UHGV virus genome: UHGV-0140091
Direction: 5' to 3' (one strand)
From: a virus
DNA length: 35,268 nucleotides
Shown: positions 4,972-30,745 of the stretch, piece after piece
How the letters are laid out: every line of letters begins with the position of its first letter
Position numbering within the stretch: position 1 is the first letter of the stretch
The notes under the pieces: model-generated
What the model saw: the letters and a program-made list of their open reading frames with translations, nothing else
What the model was told of the DNA's origin: nothing
The model's database searches: none
Translations under genes and position numbers: made by a program

Positions 4972-5343
4972 ATGAAAGCTAAGAGTGCAAAAGACTTTTA
5001 TTGCTTCCTACAATCCTATATCAATTCCGTGCAAAATGGTGAAAGGTACAACCTTAATGATGTTATCCCAACACCTTTGACATGGAGACTCAGTAAATGG
5101 CCTGAAGAAGATATTACACCAACAATCGAACAGCGTACCTACAAACCTGAAATCAATATTCCAGACTCTGAGAATCTATTATACCCAATGTTCCATATTG
5201 TTGGTCTTGGAAGATTCCTTATGGATATCCAGTATGTAATTGGTAAAGGTTATAAGGTTAAAGGTATTGTCGTTGGTGATGTATCTCCGAATCACAAAGG
5301 TTATTTTAGACTAAACGCACATTTAGAGGCTGAAAAGAAATGA
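4972..5343 (+). CDS. hypothetical protein, paralog of the N-terminal domain of the next gene
   Basis: 123-aa ORF; aligns along its length with residues 1-~110 of the 5340-6224 product (shared RY, LTW/YWPE, YKP, ELLY, F(L)MD(I/L)QY segments). Confidence 0.65.
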   Translation: MKAKSAKDFYCFLQSYINSVQNGERYNLNDVIPTPLTWRLSKWPEEDITPTIEQRTYKPEINIPDSENLLYPMFHIVGLGRFLMDIQYVIGKGYKVKGIVVGDVSPNHKGYFRLNAHLEAEKK

Positions 5344-6224
5344 TTAAAGCAAAGACTTACCCAGACTTCAAAGAGTTTGTGAAGGGCTTCATTGCAAACG
5401 TAAAGGCTGGTAAGAGATATGATTTTAGAACATATCAAGAGGCTATTTTACCACTTACCTATAGTTCATATTGGCCTGAAGCTGATATTGCAGAAGTTGA
5501 GAAGTTTGACTACAAACCAGACTACAAAGTCCCATTTAGTGATGAGTTGCTTTACAGCGTTGGTGCTCAAATGAGAACTTCTGACTTCTTCATGGACTTA
5601 CAATATGCAATTATCAATGGTAAAGATGTTGATACAGTTTATTGTGAATGGCTGGCAAGGGTTAAACCATTCTCAATGTTGAATGCTAAGTTGAAGGATG
5701 CTATCAAGCCACCAGCAATTACTCAGCAGCCAACAGGTCAAACAGTTAATGAGGGTGGCACACTTACTCTAACCATTCTAGCAACTAACGCCACTGGATA
5801 TCAGTGGAAAAAGGATGGTGAGGACATCCCTAGTGCCAATTCTGCAACTTACACAAAACAGTCAGTAGCACCTTCTGACGCTGGTTCATACACTTGTGTT
5901 GTATCTGGAGAAGGTGGAACAAGTGTTACCTCAGATGCAGCAACAGTGACTGTGAATGCACTACCTGTGATTACCAAGCAACCTTCTAACCAGACTATTA
6001 ATGAAGGTGGAAACATCAACTTAGCAGTTACTGCAACAGGTGCAACAGGTTACCAGTGGAAGAAAGGTGAGGAAGATATACTTGATGCAACCGCTGCAAC
6101 TTACACTAAAGAAGGTGCAACCGCTGCTGATTCAGGAAGCTACACCTGTGTAGTTACTGGTGCAGGTGGCTCTGTAACATCTAATGCAGCAACAGTTACA
6201 GTTAACCCAGCAGGGGAGGCATAA
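5340..6224 (+). CDS. hypothetical protein with two C-terminal Ig-like repeats
   Basis: 294 aa. Two ~80-aa tandem repeats, each with NEGG, GYQWKK, ATYTK and GSYTCVV motifs, resembling phage Ig-like (I-set/Big-type) domains. Confidence 0.7.
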   Translation: MIKAKTYPDFKEFVKGFIANVKAGKRYDFRTYQEAILPLTYSSYWPEADIAEVEKFDYKPDYKVPFSDELLYSVGAQMRTSDFFMDLQYAIINGKDVDTVYCEWLARVKPFSMLNAKLKDAIKPPAITQQPTGQTVNEGGTLTLTILATNATGYQWKKDGEDIPSANSATYTKQSVAPSDAGSYTCVVSGEGGTSVTSDAATVTVNALPVITKQPSNQTINEGGNINLAVTATGATGYQWKKGEEDILDATAATYTKEGATAADSGSYTCVVTGAGGSVTSNAATVTVNPAGEA

Positions 6225-24296: not shown

Positions 24297-26663
24297 TTAA
24301 TCGTAAATTGTAGTCCCTTCTGGAACACACTTCACATCAAAGCCTAAAAACTTACTCACTTCGATAGGTGATACTTTATTCCAATCTAAGTGTGAAAGCA
24401 AGAAGTTTTCTTGTTTTCTTTTTGAAAGATAGTTTGTCAGCTTGATAACCATGCGGTCACCTGCTTTCTTAATCTTTTTGTACAGTTTTGTGTCATTATC
24501 AAGGCATGACTTCAAATCCTGAAGAACACTGATAGTGTAAGTGTATGCAAACGGTGCAGCCACATACTGAATCTTACCAAACATTGCCTCAACAGCATCT
24601 TCATTCCCTTCTAAGAAGATTGTCTTAATAGTATCCCTTGAATAACAATACCCGCGAGAAATCTTCCTGTTATTAAACGTAAAGTTTCTGGCAATAATCC
24701 AACTGCTTGTAAGGTCAAGGACACCATTCATATAGATACGCGTCATATATCTGTTATGGTTAATCCAGTGAACATCAGTTAAGCTGTCGTTCAAGAGTTT
24801 CTCATCTACTTCAATCCAATCTTCTGGTATCTTTTTCCAATTTGCTTTTCGGAAAACATAGACTGTCTTACCTGTAACATTAGCAACTGACTTAGCTACA
24901 TCTTCTGGAGATGAGCAAAAACATCTACCATCAACTGTATCACCAACTGCCTTAATGTAAAGCTGAGGCTCTTCAATTGTATCAAAGTCCTCTGAAACCT
25001 CTTTATAGGAAGCTACACCTTCTGCTGGAACAGCTTTCCAGAGTTTTACAACACCTCTTACAGCTTCTTTACGCTGATAATGGTGTTCCTTCTCAGACAT
25101 CTTCACAATCTTTAACAAGCTTTTATCAAGTTTGTGTAGATTGACTAAGTCATCTAGCTCTTTTTCAGTCGAGAATACAAATACAATACCATTGTATCTG
25201 TGAAACAGACTAGACTCACTGGCATAGTCTCGACATGCACCACGCAAGATTTGATTGCGTCCTACAGTCTTCTCAGTACCGTTTTTATTGCGACGGTCAT
25301 TTATAACAAACAAAAACTGTTCAATTTGGCTTTTACGCATTGCGCCAAAGATATTGAACATGCTTGCCTCTTGAGTGTAGGAAAGCGATGTTGCACGAAT
25401 CTTACTCTCTAAAGAGTTGAATTTGACATAAGCAACTGGGTCATAAAGATAATCTACTTTAGGGATATTGTTCCCGTTCCTATCAACCTTAATATTGCCT
25501 TTGCCGTCACGTTCATAAATGACTGAGCCGTCTTCTGCGTAGATAATTCCACGACGAATGTTTAGTAATTCTTCTTCCAGAGAATCAAGCTTAACACCTC
25601 CCCACTCTAGCTTTGGACACACAACATTAAACATCTCTCGTGAGTTTAAGCGTAACTCAGCATAAGCCTGTGCAGCATCCATGAGTGTAGGTTGACTATT
25701 AACTTTCTTGATAACATCCTTTGTAATTGCTTCAGTTATCTTTTTAGTAGCCTCGATGATAACATTTTTTGTCGTGTCATTCATCTGCAATGCTTCACGA
25801 GAAGCTGCAATAGCAACTGAACCAATAGGCATGTAGATGTTTACAAGGTCTATGCTCCTGCGGAAAAATTCTGGTAATACTTTGAAGAAATCATCACCAA
25901 GTAATGCCTCCATATTAACTGGGTAGGCAATATTACCCATAACCACGTTAAACTCTGTTCTATTGCTGCTTGAACGCCAGCTATGCTTATGAGTCATGGC
26001 ATCATAGACACCTTCTTCACGAGCAATCACATCCATATCTGCTAATATATCATTATACTCCACATTACTCTCTGGTTTTACAGCAAAGTATGAGTATACA
26101 TTACCAGCCTCTTCAAAGAACTTTGAAATACGGTGGTCAGCAACTGCCACACGTACAGCTAAACCATTAGGTTCTTTTGTTGGGTTAGTGGTCAGTTTAG
26201 TTACTTGAGGGATACCATTCTCAAGATAAACAGAGTACTTATTAACAACACCGTCAACATAGCTAGACACTGTGAATGACTGAGCAATTGCAAATGGTGA
26301 TTTTGAGCCGATACCCATTGCACCAATGTAGTCATTAGAGTCATTCTTCGTAGAAGCCCCATAGTTTAGGTACAAACTCATAACTTTATCATGAGTTAAT
26401 CCAGTTCCAAAATCACGAACTTCAAAGTAAGGCTCAAAACGAGTAGGCAAATGCACATGGAACGGGATGTTCTCTTTTCCAGCCTCTTTCTGAGCATCTA
26501 CTGCGTTACATGACAGTTCACGAATCACTGCCCTTTCTTTAAAGGTATATACACCAGAACTCAAAAGGCTGAACATTTCAGGTGTCATTGTAATCTGTGC
26601 TTGAGACGTCTCTAAAGAAGTTGAACTCTTAATCACTTCTGCGTGGTCGTTTACCATGCGCAT
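24297..26663 (-). CDS. rIIA: rIIA-like GHKL-family ATPase-domain protein
   Basis: 788 aa with N-terminal Bergerat-fold motifs ELSCNAVDA, DFGTGL and GAMGIGSKS; size and adjacency to a ~370-aa partner match the T4 rIIA/rIIB pair. Confidence 0.55.
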   Translation of the reverse strand: MRMVNDHAEVIKSSTSLETSQAQITMTPEMFSLLSSGVYTFKERAVIRELSCNAVDAQKEAGKENIPFHVHLPTRFEPYFEVRDFGTGLTHDKVMSLYLNYGASTKNDSNDYIGAMGIGSKSPFAIAQSFTVSSYVDGVVNKYSVYLENGIPQVTKLTTNPTKEPNGLAVRVAVADHRISKFFEEAGNVYSYFAVKPESNVEYNDILADMDVIAREEGVYDAMTHKHSWRSSSNRTEFNVVMGNIAYPVNMEALLGDDFFKVLPEFFRRSIDLVNIYMPIGSVAIAASREALQMNDTTKNVIIEATKKITEAITKDVIKKVNSQPTLMDAAQAYAELRLNSREMFNVVCPKLEWGGVKLDSLEEELLNIRRGIIYAEDGSVIYERDGKGNIKVDRNGNNIPKVDYLYDPVAYVKFNSLESKIRATSLSYTQEASMFNIFGAMRKSQIEQFLFVINDRRNKNGTEKTVGRNQILRGACRDYASESSLFHRYNGIVFVFSTEKELDDLVNLHKLDKSLLKIVKMSEKEHHYQRKEAVRGVVKLWKAVPAEGVASYKEVSEDFDTIEEPQLYIKAVGDTVDGRCFCSSPEDVAKSVANVTGKTVYVFRKANWKKIPEDWIEVDEKLLNDSLTDVHWINHNRYMTRIYMNGVLDLTSSWIIARNFTFNNRKISRGYCYSRDTIKTIFLEGNEDAVEAMFGKIQYVAAPFAYTYTISVLQDLKSCLDNDTKLYKKIKKAGDRMVIKLTNYLSKRKQENFLLSHLDWNKVSPIEVSKFLGFDVKCVPEGTTIYD

Positions 26664-27185: not shown

Positions 27186-27201
27186 AATCTTCTCCAGAAA
27201 T

Positions 27202-27224
27202 TAAAAAGGCTCCCGTAGGAGCCT
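27202..27224 (-). terminator. rho-independent terminator after the NAMPT-like gene
   Basis: Minus-strand GGCTCC-TACG-GGAGCC hairpin followed by TTTTTAATTT. Confidence 0.65.
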
Positions 27225-27238
27225 CTTATCATATACTT

Positions 27239-29020
27239 TTAAAGCTGCTTGTCAATATTATTTCGAATATCACCAAGAGTTGTGTAGCCGAACTGCTCAG
27301 AGTCACTAAAGACTAGACGTAAAGCACAAGCTGGATGTTCAAGTGCATCTGCAAAGCTCTGGAACCCATAGCCATCTACAGCTTTCAGGTTTTCACCATC
27401 CCACATAGGTGCTACACCACCAAAAGCAGACTTCTTAACACCACTATCTGTTTTAGGGTCTTTTGCAAGCATAATCTCTTTACCACCAATGCTTGCAAGG
27501 GTTGCTTTGACAGCAAATGCAAAGGTGTCACGAGTCATGTACTGGTAAGTGTAAGAACCTACACCAAACACTACGTTAGAGCTTGCAAAACCCATTTCAT
27601 ACAAACGCTTCAGTATTTCATTTGCACGTTCCAACGTGATAGAGTCGCCATAAATAAGTCCAATATGCTCATCCAGTACTTTAAAGCCTTTAGAGTTAAT
27701 AGTTCCCCCAAAGATGTTGTACAGTGTCTTAATAGCTCCATCAATCTCAGCTACAGGACGTGTTACAACGTTTGCAGAACCAACCATATAAGCATTTTTC
27801 AACATCACTGTATCAGCAACTTCAAAGTCTTCTCTGTCAACAACCATCTCGTAGCCTTCTGACAGTAGCCATCCAGCAATACCATAGTTGATGTTCTCAA
27901 GCTTCATGTTCAGAACAGCATTCAACATTGTGTCACTGGCTTCCAGCTTGCTTAGGTGCTCGTAATAAGCCTTCTTAGCACATTCTAAGTGGATTGCTTT
28001 ATAACCTGTGACAATATGTACAGGGTCTCCAGAGTCAGGGCGAATTACCAGTTTGCCATCACGTTCCATAATTTCTTTACGAAGTGCTGGTAAGATTTCT
28101 GACACAGTTCTCCAGAAGTTATAAGTATCTGAAACAATGCTTGCAATACCTGTTGGGTAAGTTTCTGTTAAGAAACGACGGAAGGTTTGTAACTCACCTT
28201 TAAAGCGTCTTTCTTCTTCAATCAACTCATTACCACCTTCCCAAGCAATGTTTGCACACATTACAGAGTGCTCAGTGGCTGGTACAGAACTACCAATATC
28301 AGAGATTGGGTAGGACTGTCCATAGATTCGTTTAGCCGTGTATACAGCAGGGAAGCTATCAGTCCCTTTAAAGCTGGTTAAGTGACCTACAGCGTTAAAT
28401 GCGTCATCAGTAAAGCCGGACATACCACGCATAGCAAAATCATGGCACTGATAAGGTAAATGTAAGTCATTGTCACAAGTAAGGTCAGCCCACTTCTTAC
28501 AGATGCGTTTGTAATGCAATGCAATAGTTGCAATGGTGCAAGCCTTCCAAATTTCAGCAGAGAAAGCATCTTCCAGATAACCTGCTACCCAATGAAAACC
28601 TGAAACAGTGTTCTGAAAGACAATCATCGGGACACGCATTGGAACAACTGTGCCTTCTTCTACAGCGTATACTTCAACTGGTAGATAACCTAAGTCGTGA
28701 AGTGCTTCCCAATGCTCTCGACCGATAGCATCTTTACCCAGAACACCATTCATGACTTCTAAGATTTCATCAATGGCTTCTTTTTTATCACGTTCAAAGA
28801 AAGTGGCATTCCAGTGGTCTATCAAGTAATCTTTAACAAAACGTTGAATACCAAAAGCCACTACACCGTCAATTGCTAAGGGGCTGTTAAACCATTTGTC
28901 GCTACGTGGTGTCAGATTGAACATCAAGTACTCTGTTGCGCTAGGATACTGGTAAACATGACCAGATTTGTAAGCATCTGCATTTAAACCTGCTGGTACT
29001 GCATAAAGTGATTTAGTCAT
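27239..29020 (-). CDS. nicotinamide phosphoribosyltransferase-family protein (NadV/NAMPT-like; possibly a Namat-type enzyme)
   Basis: 593 aa with NAMPT-like motifs NADAYKSGH...YQYP, HDFAMRG, VPATEHS and IRPDSGDP; longer than typical NAMPT. Confidence 0.8.
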   Translation of the reverse strand: MTKSLYAVPAGLNADAYKSGHVYQYPSATEYLMFNLTPRSDKWFNSPLAIDGVVAFGIQRFVKDYLIDHWNATFFERDKKEAIDEILEVMNGVLGKDAIGREHWEALHDLGYLPVEVYAVEEGTVVPMRVPMIVFQNTVSGFHWVAGYLEDAFSAEIWKACTIATIALHYKRICKKWADLTCDNDLHLPYQCHDFAMRGMSGFTDDAFNAVGHLTSFKGTDSFPAVYTAKRIYGQSYPISDIGSSVPATEHSVMCANIAWEGGNELIEEERRFKGELQTFRRFLTETYPTGIASIVSDTYNFWRTVSEILPALRKEIMERDGKLVIRPDSGDPVHIVTGYKAIHLECAKKAYYEHLSKLEASDTMLNAVLNMKLENINYGIAGWLLSEGYEMVVDREDFEVADTVMLKNAYMVGSANVVTRPVAEIDGAIKTLYNIFGGTINSKGFKVLDEHIGLIYGDSITLERANEILKRLYEMGFASSNVVFGVGSYTYQYMTRDTFAFAVKATLASIGGKEIMLAKDPKTDSGVKKSAFGGVAPMWDGENLKAVDGYGFQSFADALEHPACALRLVFSDSEQFGYTTLGDIRNNIDKQL

Positions 29021-29065
29021 CTTTTAATCTCTCTCAAAATGGGGCTTGGAAGCCCCTATAAAGTT

Positions 29066-29962
29066 TTAATCAAGGTTTGCTACAGTAACTTGGCTATAAT
29101 GTGTTAAGCCACGGTCTTTAGCTTCCCCTAAAGAGTTTGTAGTGTAGATATGGTCAATACCATTGTCAAGCAAGTTTTCAACATCTTTAGAGAAAATACC
29201 ATGAGTTACATAGAGTTCCACACGTTTTGCACCTGCTTCACGAAGATGTTTGGCTGCTTCTATGAAGGTTCGACCTCCATCACAAATATCATCCAGAATC
29301 ATGACAGTTTTATCTGTCAAATCAACATCGTCAAGGATTCGCATACCAGTAATTTCACCAGTCTTAAGGTTACGCACCTTAGACATTGTGATGTATGGTT
29401 TATCCACCTCTTTAGCAGTCTCTGCAATCTTCTTAGCAGCACCTGCATCTGGGGCTACTAAGTAATCAATCAGTGGGTCATTTGCGTAGTGAACTGCAAT
29501 CTCCTTTTGAGGAATACTCTGGAAGCAGTTAAACAGGTTATCTGGAACGTAACTGTGAGGGTCAACTGCACAGACTGCACCAAATCCCATTGCATTTACC
29601 TGTTTAGCAAAAACCTTTAAAGCTGCTGCGTCGCCTTTAAACATGTGACGGTCATAACGTGCATTTGGTAAGTAGTAAAAGATGACAGTCTTTAAAGCAT
29701 AATCATGAGGAATTAAATCATCAATTGCTTCTTTAGCAAGTGCCACAGCAAACAATGTATCCTTATCATAACCTTTTACAATCATAATCACATTGTTGAT
29801 GGATGATGCTGCATAAGCAGTGAAATCAACAAACTCTGGAGAAAAGTGTCCACCAATCTCACCAGAAGGAAATTGGATGATGTTAAACTCTTCTTCATGA
29901 GTTCCTTTAGTTGGCGAATGAACTGTAACACGGATAGATGTTTTCATAGTTTTCTCTCTCAA
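29066..29962 (-). CDS. ribose-phosphate pyrophosphokinase-family protein (Prs-like; possibly an Adps-type enzyme)
   Basis: 298 aa with VIFYYLPNARYDRH (cf. Prs IPYFGYARQDRR) and PRPP-binding loop VMILDDICDGGRTF...GAKRV...THGIFS. True start may be the second ATG (MKTSIRV). Confidence 0.8.
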   Translation of the reverse strand: MREKTMKTSIRVTVHSPTKGTHEEEFNIIQFPSGEIGGHFSPEFVDFTAYAASSINNVIMIVKGYDKDTLFAVALAKEAIDDLIPHDYALKTVIFYYLPNARYDRHMFKGDAAALKVFAKQVNAMGFGAVCAVDPHSYVPDNLFNCFQSIPQKEIAVHYANDPLIDYLVAPDAGAAKKIAETAKEVDKPYITMSKVRNLKTGEITGMRILDDVDLTDKTVMILDDICDGGRTFIEAAKHLREAGAKRVELYVTHGIFSKDVENLLDNGIDHIYTTNSLGEAKDRGLTHYSQVTVANLD

Positions 29963-30237
29963 TCAAAAGTTACGTTTGTTACTGCCATTGCAGATTTGCA
30001 TTTTGCAGGGTCTACAACGTGATAAAGTACACTACAGTTACCTGTGCTGTCTGGTACAGGTTTAACCCATTGTTGCTTGACAGTTGGTTCGCCTAAGTCT
30101 TTGTAAGAACCATCTGTAAAGTTGTTTACCATCTCAAGTGCAATTGGCTCTGGAACATGACCACGTATCATGTACATTTCACAACCATTACCTCCTTCAC
30201 TGACTAATGGTAAAATCTCCCACTTTTCTTTAGCCAT
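29959..30237 (-). CDS. hypothetical protein
   Basis: 92-aa ORF, start overlaps the upstream stop. Confidence 0.55.
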   Translation of the reverse strand: MAKEKWEILPLVSEGGNGCEMYMIRGHVPEPIALEMVNNFTDGSYKDLGEPTVKQQWVKPVPDSTGNCSVLYHVVDPAKCKSAMAVTNVTFD

Positions 30238-30745
30238 TATAAGTTGCCCTATAAACTGTCTCGAACTTCAACAGGAGAGATATTGCCAAATCTGTATAGT
30301 TGTTGTCAAGCACATCTGGCATATTATTTTTGATATATTTCTCTTGCTCTTCATAGGTCATCTTAGGGATACTTAGGAGGCTATCTCCTTGCTTCTGGTT
30401 ATCAGTTTTAGTTTGGATAAACCAGTTTGCACAGTGATGTTCACCACCTTTTGTAACAGGTTTGTGATGACCTAATGTAAATGTTTGCTTACCCGTATAC
30501 CTGCAAAGATTGTTCAGTGTTGCAATGGTGTTCTTCACAACACACCATTCATACAGGTTATCTATTGTGTAGTGTGGGTAATAACGGACAAGTGCTCTTT
30601 CACGGAAGTTATCACGATTCCAAAGAACCATGTGATTAGAATTTGAAGGGTCATATTTGTGGGAGTCTATAAACTCTTGACGCTCATCAAAGCTGAGTCT
30701 TAGAACTGACATTGCAACCGAACGTTTCAGGTTTGACAGATACAT
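30230..30745 (-). CDS. putative HNH-type nuclease
   Basis: 171 aa with GHHKPVTKGGEHHCANW (HH...P...GG...N pattern). Confidence 0.4.
   Translation of the reverse strand: MYLSNLKRSVAMSVLRLSFDERQEFIDSHKYDPSNSNHMVLWNRDNFRERALVRYYPHYTIDNLYEWCVVKNTIATLNNLCRYTGKQTFTLGHHKPVTKGGEHHCANWFIQTKTDNQKQGDSLLSIPKMTYEEQEKYIKNNMPDVLDNNYTDLAISLLLKFETVYRATYNG

Follow-up and report, generated by a model that had tools for sequence, protein, structure and literature searches.

A probable NARP1 (NAD+ reconstitution pathway 1) operon in the genome of a FelixO1-like coliphage

NARP1 of phage Bas63 and its counterpart in the window

Nicotinamide adenine dinucleotide (NAD+) reconstitution pathway 1 (NARP1) was discovered in the operon formed by genes 79 and 80 of phage Bas63 (Osterman et al., bioRxiv 10.1101/2024.02.11.579819). 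Here we analyzed two adjacent genes in a stretch of 35,268 nucleotides from the UHGV virus genome UHGV-0140091, the whole of which is referred to as the window, and we consider it very probable that they are the NARP1 operon of a FelixO1-like coliphage. Bas63 without genes 79-80 no longer overcomes the defense system SIR2-HerA, wild-type Bas63 partly restores NAD+, and ADP-ribose pyrophosphate (ADPR-PP; m/z 720.010) was seen only when wild-type phage and the defense system were both present (10.1101/2024.02.11.579819). Purified homologs from SPbetaL1 converted ADP-ribose (ADPR) and ATP to ADPR-PP, and ADPR-PP and nicotinamide to NAD+ (10.1101/2024.02.11.579819). In an independent genome-wide knockout study (PhageMaP), the single deletion of either g79 or g80 cut plating on Sir2-HerA cells 1e4- to 1e6-fold and complementation restored it. 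The enzyme activities of NARP1 have been shown for homologs from SPbetaL1, ICP1, DyoEdafos and P. foliorum. The study by Osterman et al. has reportedly since been published in Nature.

If the window locus works in the same way, an NAD-depleting defense such as SIR2-HerA, type I Thoeris, DSR1/2, SEFIR and similar systems would cleave NAD+ into ADPR and nicotinamide, and the first phage enzyme, Adps, would move the beta-gamma pyrophosphate of ATP onto the 1'' hydroxyl of ADPR to give ADPR-PP. The second, Namat, would then join ADPR-PP and nicotinamide by NAMPT-type chemistry, its adenine-binding clamp favoring ADPR-PP over phosphoribosyl pyrophosphate (PRPP), so that NAD+ would be regenerated directly, with neither nicotinamide mononucleotide (NMN) nor an NMN adenylyltransferase (NMNAT) being required.

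On comparison with sequenced genomes the window is assigned to the genus Felixounavirus, that is, to a FelixO1-like coliphage, as is Bas63 (Escherichia phage JohannRWettstein of BASEL; MZ501086). Over a region of 3.3 kb, identity is 99.9% with Felixounavirus LF82P5 and 99.7% with phage KhF2, and more than 200 FelixO1-like phages that infect Escherichia, Salmonella, Shigella and Citrobacter reach at least 90%. The gene for the Prs-fold ADP-ribose pyrophosphokinase, adps (29066..29947, minus strand; 293 aa from its ATG), lies upstream of and is co-oriented with the gene for the NAMPT-fold nicotinamide ADP-ribose transferase, namat (27239..29020, minus strand; 593 aa), from which it is separated by a spacer of 45 nt. 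Genes 79 (882 nt) and 80 (1782 nt) of Bas63 have the same neighborhood, the shared order being NrdG, small genes, 77, 78, 79, 80, more small genes, rIIA and rIIB. Namat matches Bas63 gp80 at 585 of 593 residues (98.7%) over an equal length, and Adps matches gp79 at 230 of 293 residues (78%) in a gap-free alignment and is 100% identical to the KhF2 protein.

An earlier sequence-only reading of this DNA had reported a co-oriented pair of open reading frames (ORFs) at 27239-29020 and 29066-29962, and both were found. The motifs it quoted are all present (DDICDGGRTF and YLPNARYDRH in Adps; HDFAMRG, VPATEHS and RPDSGDP in Namat), and its assignment of the pair to the Prs and NAMPT families agrees with profile scores far beyond chance. 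Its central proposal, a two-enzyme Adps/Namat route from ADPR and nicotinamide to NAD+, gained support from the matches to gp79 and gp80 in the same order. The extent of the Prs-like gene needed correction: the ORF is real, but the TTG start at 29962 in the mechanical ORF list (29066-29962, minus strand; 298 aa) was replaced. The true start is almost certainly the ATG at 29947, because a GAGAGAG element lies 6 nt upstream of it, the same element precedes the namat ATG, and this Met is where the annotation of the Bas63 gene begins. By direct inspection of the sequence, the Shine-Dalgarno-like elements are GAGAGAG before adps (29954..29960, minus strand), which overlaps the stop codon of an upstream 92-aa gene, and GAGAGAGA before namat (29028..29035, minus strand), and the spacer holds a small GC hairpin, GGGGCT-TCCA-AGCCCC, followed by ATTTT (29041..29056, minus strand), whose T-run is under the threshold of the terminator scan.

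The two enzymes and competing explanations

Family and structure comparisons placed Namat closer to the characterized NARP1 enzyme than to NadV or NAMPT. It passed the cut-off of NCBIfam PRK09198 (469 bits, E 1.4e-140) and matched phrog_448 (E 3.6e-202) and Pfam NAPRTase (E 6.8e-35), with NAMPT_N, at 24.9 bits, falling just below its gathering score of 25. Its best sequence match in the PDB is Namat itself (9W5W/9W5X; 431 bits, E 5e-128), the scores for H. ducreyi NadV (9KE8), Xanthomonas Nampt (7YQO) and human NAMPT being 352 bits, 180 bits (E 7.6e-52) and about 141-143 bits (E ~1e-40), respectively. An AlphaFold2 model made with 34 homologs (pLDDT 93.4, pTM 0.91) has 9W5X as its top structural match (target TM 0.95), ahead of NadV and NAMPT.

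The adenine "selectivity clamp" of Namat was defined from the structures 9W5X and 9W5W, and comprises a selectivity-clamp helix (SCH) with the consensus GS-X-Phi-X-Phi-X-Phi-TRD, in which motif positions 3 and 7 are aromatic, and a selectivity-clamp loop (SCL) that gives one stacking residue, either Arg at the third position or Lys/Tyr and then the stacking residue, as in Bas63 (PMC12774641). The SCH of the window Namat, GSYTYQYMTRD (aa 488-498; 27527..27559, minus strand), fits this consensus, with Y490 and Y494 as the aromatic residues. Its third Phi is Met, as in Bas63, the commonest residues there being Asn and Val, and the pattern is kept in all 34 aligned homologs; at the same position Xanthomonas Nampt (7YQO) has GGALLQKVDRD. 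The SCL, PRSDKW (aa 38-43; 28892..28909, minus strand), is the same as that of Bas63, and its K42-W43 corresponds by alignment to the Bas63-type adenine-stacking arrangement of Lys third followed by the stacking residue. When the ligand-contacting residues of 9W5X were mapped to the window Namat, 16 of 20 were identical, and the four changes (R40 to K42, with W43; S190 to A196; A362 to S460; F392 to Y490) are conservative or of Bas63 type. The catalytic core is intact, with F195, D221 and R327 matching F189, D215 and R306 of SPbetaL1, and with H251 as the catalytic His. Both D215 and R306 are mutationally essential in the SPbetaL1 enzyme (PMC12774641).

The sequence-only reading had also called the unusual length of the NAMPT homolog consistent with a diverged enzyme. 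This did not hold, since the length is not a new divergence: Bas63 Namat has precisely the same 593 aa. The window Namat is longer than the crystallized SPbetaL1 enzyme because of two insertions, at aa ~258-272 and 351-426. The latter, a 76-aa alpha/beta subdomain (27743..27970, minus strand), is absent from SPbetaL1 Namat and from NAMPTs and was predicted confidently (pLDDT 93-96 in context and 87.7 when modeled alone); no fold match was found for it. Long forms of Ounavirinae-like type have it down to 46% identity, forms of 496 aa do not, and the structural paper on Namat is silent on an insertion of this type (PMC12774641). Enterobacterial proteins of 496 aa annotated as "nicotinate phosphoribosyltransferase" on the chromosomes of Klebsiella, Cronobacter, Kosakonia, Phytobacter and Erwinia are 46-48% identical to the window Namat, carry the Namat-type motif GSFTYQYNTRD and are consistent with the bacterial NARP1 homologs of PMC12774641.

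Adps is a member of the Prs fold family that scores poorly as a true Prs. It matched phrog_619 (E 4.7e-97) and Pfam Pribosyltran and Pribosyl_synth, and it passed the cut-off of a single broad subfamily, TIGR01251 (123.6 bits, cut-off 113). All NCBIfam Prs equivalog cut-offs were failed, the best score being 103.6 bits against a cut-off of 296 and another 91 against 297. Identity to ICP1 Adps is 37% (116 bits) versus 29% (61 bits) to E. coli Prs, and the best PDB sequence match is the archaeal Prs 4TWB, in a PDB set that lacks the Adps structures of PMC13586617. Judged by a score proxy rather than a tree, namely the equivalog failures, the 116 versus 61 bits and the 78% identity to Bas63 Adps, the protein appears to belong with phage Adps and apart from cellular Prs. 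Residues were mapped by alignment to the ICP1 gene from GenBank, and the ICP1 catalytic and acceptor residues R87, H121, D161, K185, D212, D213 and D216 are invariant in the window Adps, K185 aligning with the K of SKVRN. For a further ICP1 residue, F18, the MAFFT placement is unreliable, and window F26 is proposed as its equivalent from the motifs TFSD (ICP1), RFSDGE (Prs) and QFPSGE (window). The PP loop opens DDICDG as in ICP1, where E. coli Prs has DDMIDTGGT; it continues as CDGGRT versus CDGAAS in ICP1, and the DTGGT loop by which Prs holds the 5-phosphate of ribose 5-phosphate (R5P) is absent.

The best-surviving rival explanation is classical salvage, in which a PRPP synthetase and a NadV-type nicotinamide phosphoribosyltransferase would make NMN and the host NadR or PncC would carry it to NAD+. 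Nearly all related GenBank records label the pair in this way ("ribose-phosphate pyrophosphokinase" and "nicotinamide phosphoribosyltransferase"), the proteins score above the cut-offs of PRK09198 and of the TIGR01251 subfamily, and the PRPP-to-NMN activity of Namat in vitro is about half that of human NAMPT (PMC12774641). However, the substrate of SPbetaL1 Adps is ADPR and not R5P, SPbetaL1 Namat has a preference for ADPR-PP, the window Namat has an adenine clamp that true Nampts do not have, and Adps is below every Prs equivalog threshold with CDGGRT in place of the DTGGT loop. We therefore regard classical salvage as very unlikely to be what the locus encodes.

A general metabolic booster, supplying NAD+ or PRPP for NrdAB, NrdDG and thymidylate synthase regardless of host immunity, could be proposed from the position of the pair just downstream of the nrd cluster, and NAD+ is presumably required by the phage-encoded ligase and redox metabolism. 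It is nevertheless an extremely improbable explanation: the ADPR-PP of Bas63 arises only when a defense system is present, PhageMaP picked g79 and g80 as counters of specific defense systems, and the products of the nearby genes gp77 and rIIA/rIIB are also reported counter-defense proteins. Scarcely credible is a NARP2-type pathway, in which a Nampt would make NMN and a phage NMNAT encoded elsewhere in the genome would finish NAD+; while ~20% of phage Namat/Nampt homologs are in the NARP2 pathway and the 35-kb window is only part of a genome that is roughly 85-88 kb long, NARP2 Nampts are found in phages without Adps, which is adjacent here, the SCH motif is of Namat type, and no NMNAT was found. 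The last point, also made by the sequence-only reading for the window, was extended: no CTP_transf_like/NMNAT or Nudix domain was detected with Pfam in 30 window ORFs (every ORF of at least 150 aa, except that rIIA, rIIB and NrdD were identified by synteny), and the annotation of the complete Bas63 genome contains neither. Chance or a pseudogene was ruled out, both ORFs being full length with strong family scores.

Several points weigh against the assignment to NARP1. The N-terminal domain of Adps is far from that of Bas63, nucleotide identity being 59-80% over the first 500 nt of adps (~29450-29947) and 86-100% over the remaining operon. The ICP1 residues F92 and F223, which contact adenine and cap the donor, are not positionally conserved in the window Adps in our alignment. 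The biochemistry comes from the SPbetaL1 and ICP1 homologs, to which the window proteins are 46% (Namat) and 37% (Adps) identical, while the evidence from the Bas63-type lineage is genetic and metabolomic. In addition, some classical salvage flux may pass through Namat because it keeps PRPP-to-NMN activity in vitro.

The divergent stretch of adps is a recombinant patch. The window allele is the commoner one, with 155 phage records at 90% or higher protein identity versus ~90 with the Bas63-type allele, and at least two, and probably three, N-terminal alleles of Adps circulate in Felixounaviruses. When the locus (2724 nt, 27239-29962) was the query, the match of some records ended at query position 2434. 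The NARP1 assignment is carried by features that we observed in the window, namely the presence and order of the genes, their near-identity to the validated Bas63 genes, the motifs, the fold and the catalytic residues. That the two proteins have the activities of NARP1 enzymes and confer the anti-defense phenotype we infer from the published work on orthologs.

Surrounding genes and a distant Macro-domain gene

A recently described extension of the pathway, NARP1-AP, adds Adpp, a Poa1p-like Macro phosphatase that counters RES-type NAD+ phosphorylases by turning ADPR-1''-phosphate into ADPR (10.64898/2026.01.28.702374). The survey that described it required a Macro gene within two genes of Adps/Namat, and its table lists no Felix-like phage (10.64898/2026.01.28.702374). 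No Macro domain was detected in the window genes flanking the operon. The window does encode a 259-aa Macro-domain protein (PF01661, 28 bits against a cut-off of 22; phrog_335, "phosphatase") at 18956-19735, on the same minus strand as Namat but 7.5 kb and ~14 genes away, and the survey would have missed it because only two genes around NARP1 were looked at. Its PDB neighbors are OARD1/TARG1 and Poa1p (the TARG1/Poa1p clade), and its alignment with the validated Adpp of Vibrio phage Gary spans the whole of the latter (27% identity, E 4e-13). It also carries an extra C-terminal region of ~100 aa without a Pfam match. Bas63 has a copy at the corresponding position that shares only 40% identity with the window protein, and the window allele is rare (13 records at 90% or higher identity). 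Homologs occur in ~2,800 phage records, and in many T4-like genomes the gene is beside the valyl-tRNA synthetase modifier gene and not Adps; this wide spread and the extra C-terminal region count against a dedicated role in NARP1.

Potentially, Felixounaviruses run a split, extended NARP1 in which the distal Macro protein would supply Adps by dephosphorylating ADPR-1''-phosphate or by acting on some other modified ADP-ribose and, separately, the 76-aa subdomain of Namat would add a regulatory or inhibitor-evasion function missing from the crystallized enzyme. We consider this extended reading unlikely; if true, the Macro protein would make the phage resistant to RES-type NAD+ phosphorylases although the operon itself has no Adpp.

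No third NARP1 component was identified beside the operon. The neighboring proteins of 92, 171, 111, 58, 106 and 88 aa have no Macro, RyR, NMNAT or Nudix domain, and a gene for the published NARP1 accessory with a RyR domain (RyDEP) was not found next to the operon. The gene for the 92-aa protein (phrog_4726; 29959-30237, minus strand) has a stop codon that overlaps the ribosome-binding site of adps. It occurs in 231 records, all from phages of Felixounavirus/Mooglevirus type, and for that reason is not a general part of NARP1. Upstream of it is a 171-aa protein (30230-30745, minus strand) that is 89% identical to Bas63 gp77, which has been reported as a counter to the Ec67 retron and described as GIY-YIG; our scans found a weak HNH-endonuclease likeness (phrog_2214, E 2e-6) and no Pfam nuclease domain. 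A consensus scan detected a terminator-like hairpin with a 10-bp stem and a T-run 12 nt past the namat stop (27204..27227, minus strand) and a second at 30785-30763. From these two hairpins the 171-aa gene, the 92-aa gene, adps and namat likely form one transcription unit that ends at the first, and thus the 171-aa gene is probably transcribed together with NARP1. On the other side of the operon are homologs of rIIA (788 aa) and rIIB (369 aa) at 23112-26663 on the minus strand, whose Bas63 counterparts are reported as counters to QatABCD. Based on the Bas63 reports for gp77 and rIIA/rIIB, NARP1 would sit in a run of counter-defense genes that extends from 23.1 to 30.7 kb of the window.

The Bas63 gene bas63_0081 (345 nt) is absent from the window, as seen when window positions 27186-27238 are compared with Bas63 25512-25857, and some relatives, such as Escherichia typing phage 1 and fjerdesal, have ~350 extra nt near the downstream end of Namat. 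In many Felixounaviruses, among them Salmonella phage Mushroom (KP143762) and Escherichia phage skuden (MN850585), the adps-namat match is split by ~470 nt with an HNH homing endonuclease gene, an insertion that the window does not have.

Further features lie elsewhere in the window. The window nrdD is an uninterrupted ORF of 714 aa (33021-35165), whereas that of Bas63 is split (17829-18569; window ~33968) by ~740 nt with the homing endonuclease bas63_0068. Between ~13200 and 18530 of the window, intergenic elements of 60-110 nt each match several Bas63 intergenic sites at 80-99% identity, and these appear to be one family of repeats that may act as promoter or terminator modules. At 329-1681 on the minus strand are nine tRNA genes (Ile, Met, Lys, Asp, Tyr, Asn, Met, Glu and Pro), the counterparts of a portion of the tRNA array in Bas63. 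An Ig-like domain protein of 294 aa (5340-6224, plus strand) adjoins the endolysin gene; its Bas63 counterpart, bas63_0124, has 460 aa, and given this difference in length the number of Ig repeats probably differs between the two.

Comparison with known systems

NARP1 reverses the chemistry of NAD-depleting defenses and does not have to inhibit them one at a time, and in this way it neutralizes a whole class of them (SIR2-HerA, type I Thoeris, DSR1/2, SEFIR, and some pAgo and CBASS effectors). The value of recognizing the operon in the window lies mainly in annotation, as the related GenBank records almost all still read "Prs" and "NadV", and in helping to predict which hosts the FelixO1-like phages used for therapy and typing can infect. 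Its value as a discovery is small, the locus being an ortholog of the type system.

Among the known systems, cellular Prs of E. coli together with NadV/NAMPT salvage shares with the window proteins the folds, the phosphoribosyl-transfer chemistry, the catalytic His (H251 in the window) and the nicotinamide pocket. However, the window proteins score much lower against it, Adps has neither the DTGGT loop nor the C-terminal extension of Prs, and Namat has an adenine clamp. The NARP2 pathway of Vibrio phage KVP40 (the Nampt NadV and the Nmnat NatV) likewise has a NAMPT-fold enzyme and rebuilds NAD+ against NAD-depleting defenses, but it works through PRPP and an NMN adenylyltransferase and lacks Adps, whereas the window has Adps and a Namat-type clamp and no NMNAT was found in it. 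NARP1-AP of Vibrio phage Gary, with the order Adps - Adpp - Namat, has the same core of Adps and Namat, and both phages encode a Macro protein, although that of the window is outside the operon and has the extra C-terminal region of ~100 aa.

Closer are the NARP1 of SPbetaL1 (Namat 9W5X/9W5W; PMC12774641) and the Adps of ICP1 (PMC13586617), with which the window shares the two-gene architecture, the folds, 16 of the 20 Namat ligand residues and all the reported Adps catalytic residues. Identity to the window is only 46% for Namat and 37% for Adps, and SPbetaL1 Namat has R40 where the window has K42-W43, F392 in place of Y490, and neither of the insertions at aa ~258-272 and 351-426. The closest system of all is the NARP1 of Bas63 (bas63_0079/bas63_0080). 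It differs from the window in that the ~165 N-terminal residues of the window Adps are a different allele and in the presence of bas63_0081 downstream of its Namat, but the genus, gene order, spacing and Namat length of 593 aa are alike, and the K-W of the SCL, the SCH motif and the 76-aa Namat insertion are all in both. As an ortholog of the type NARP1 system that many sequenced phages carry in nearly identical form, the window locus is thus already known.

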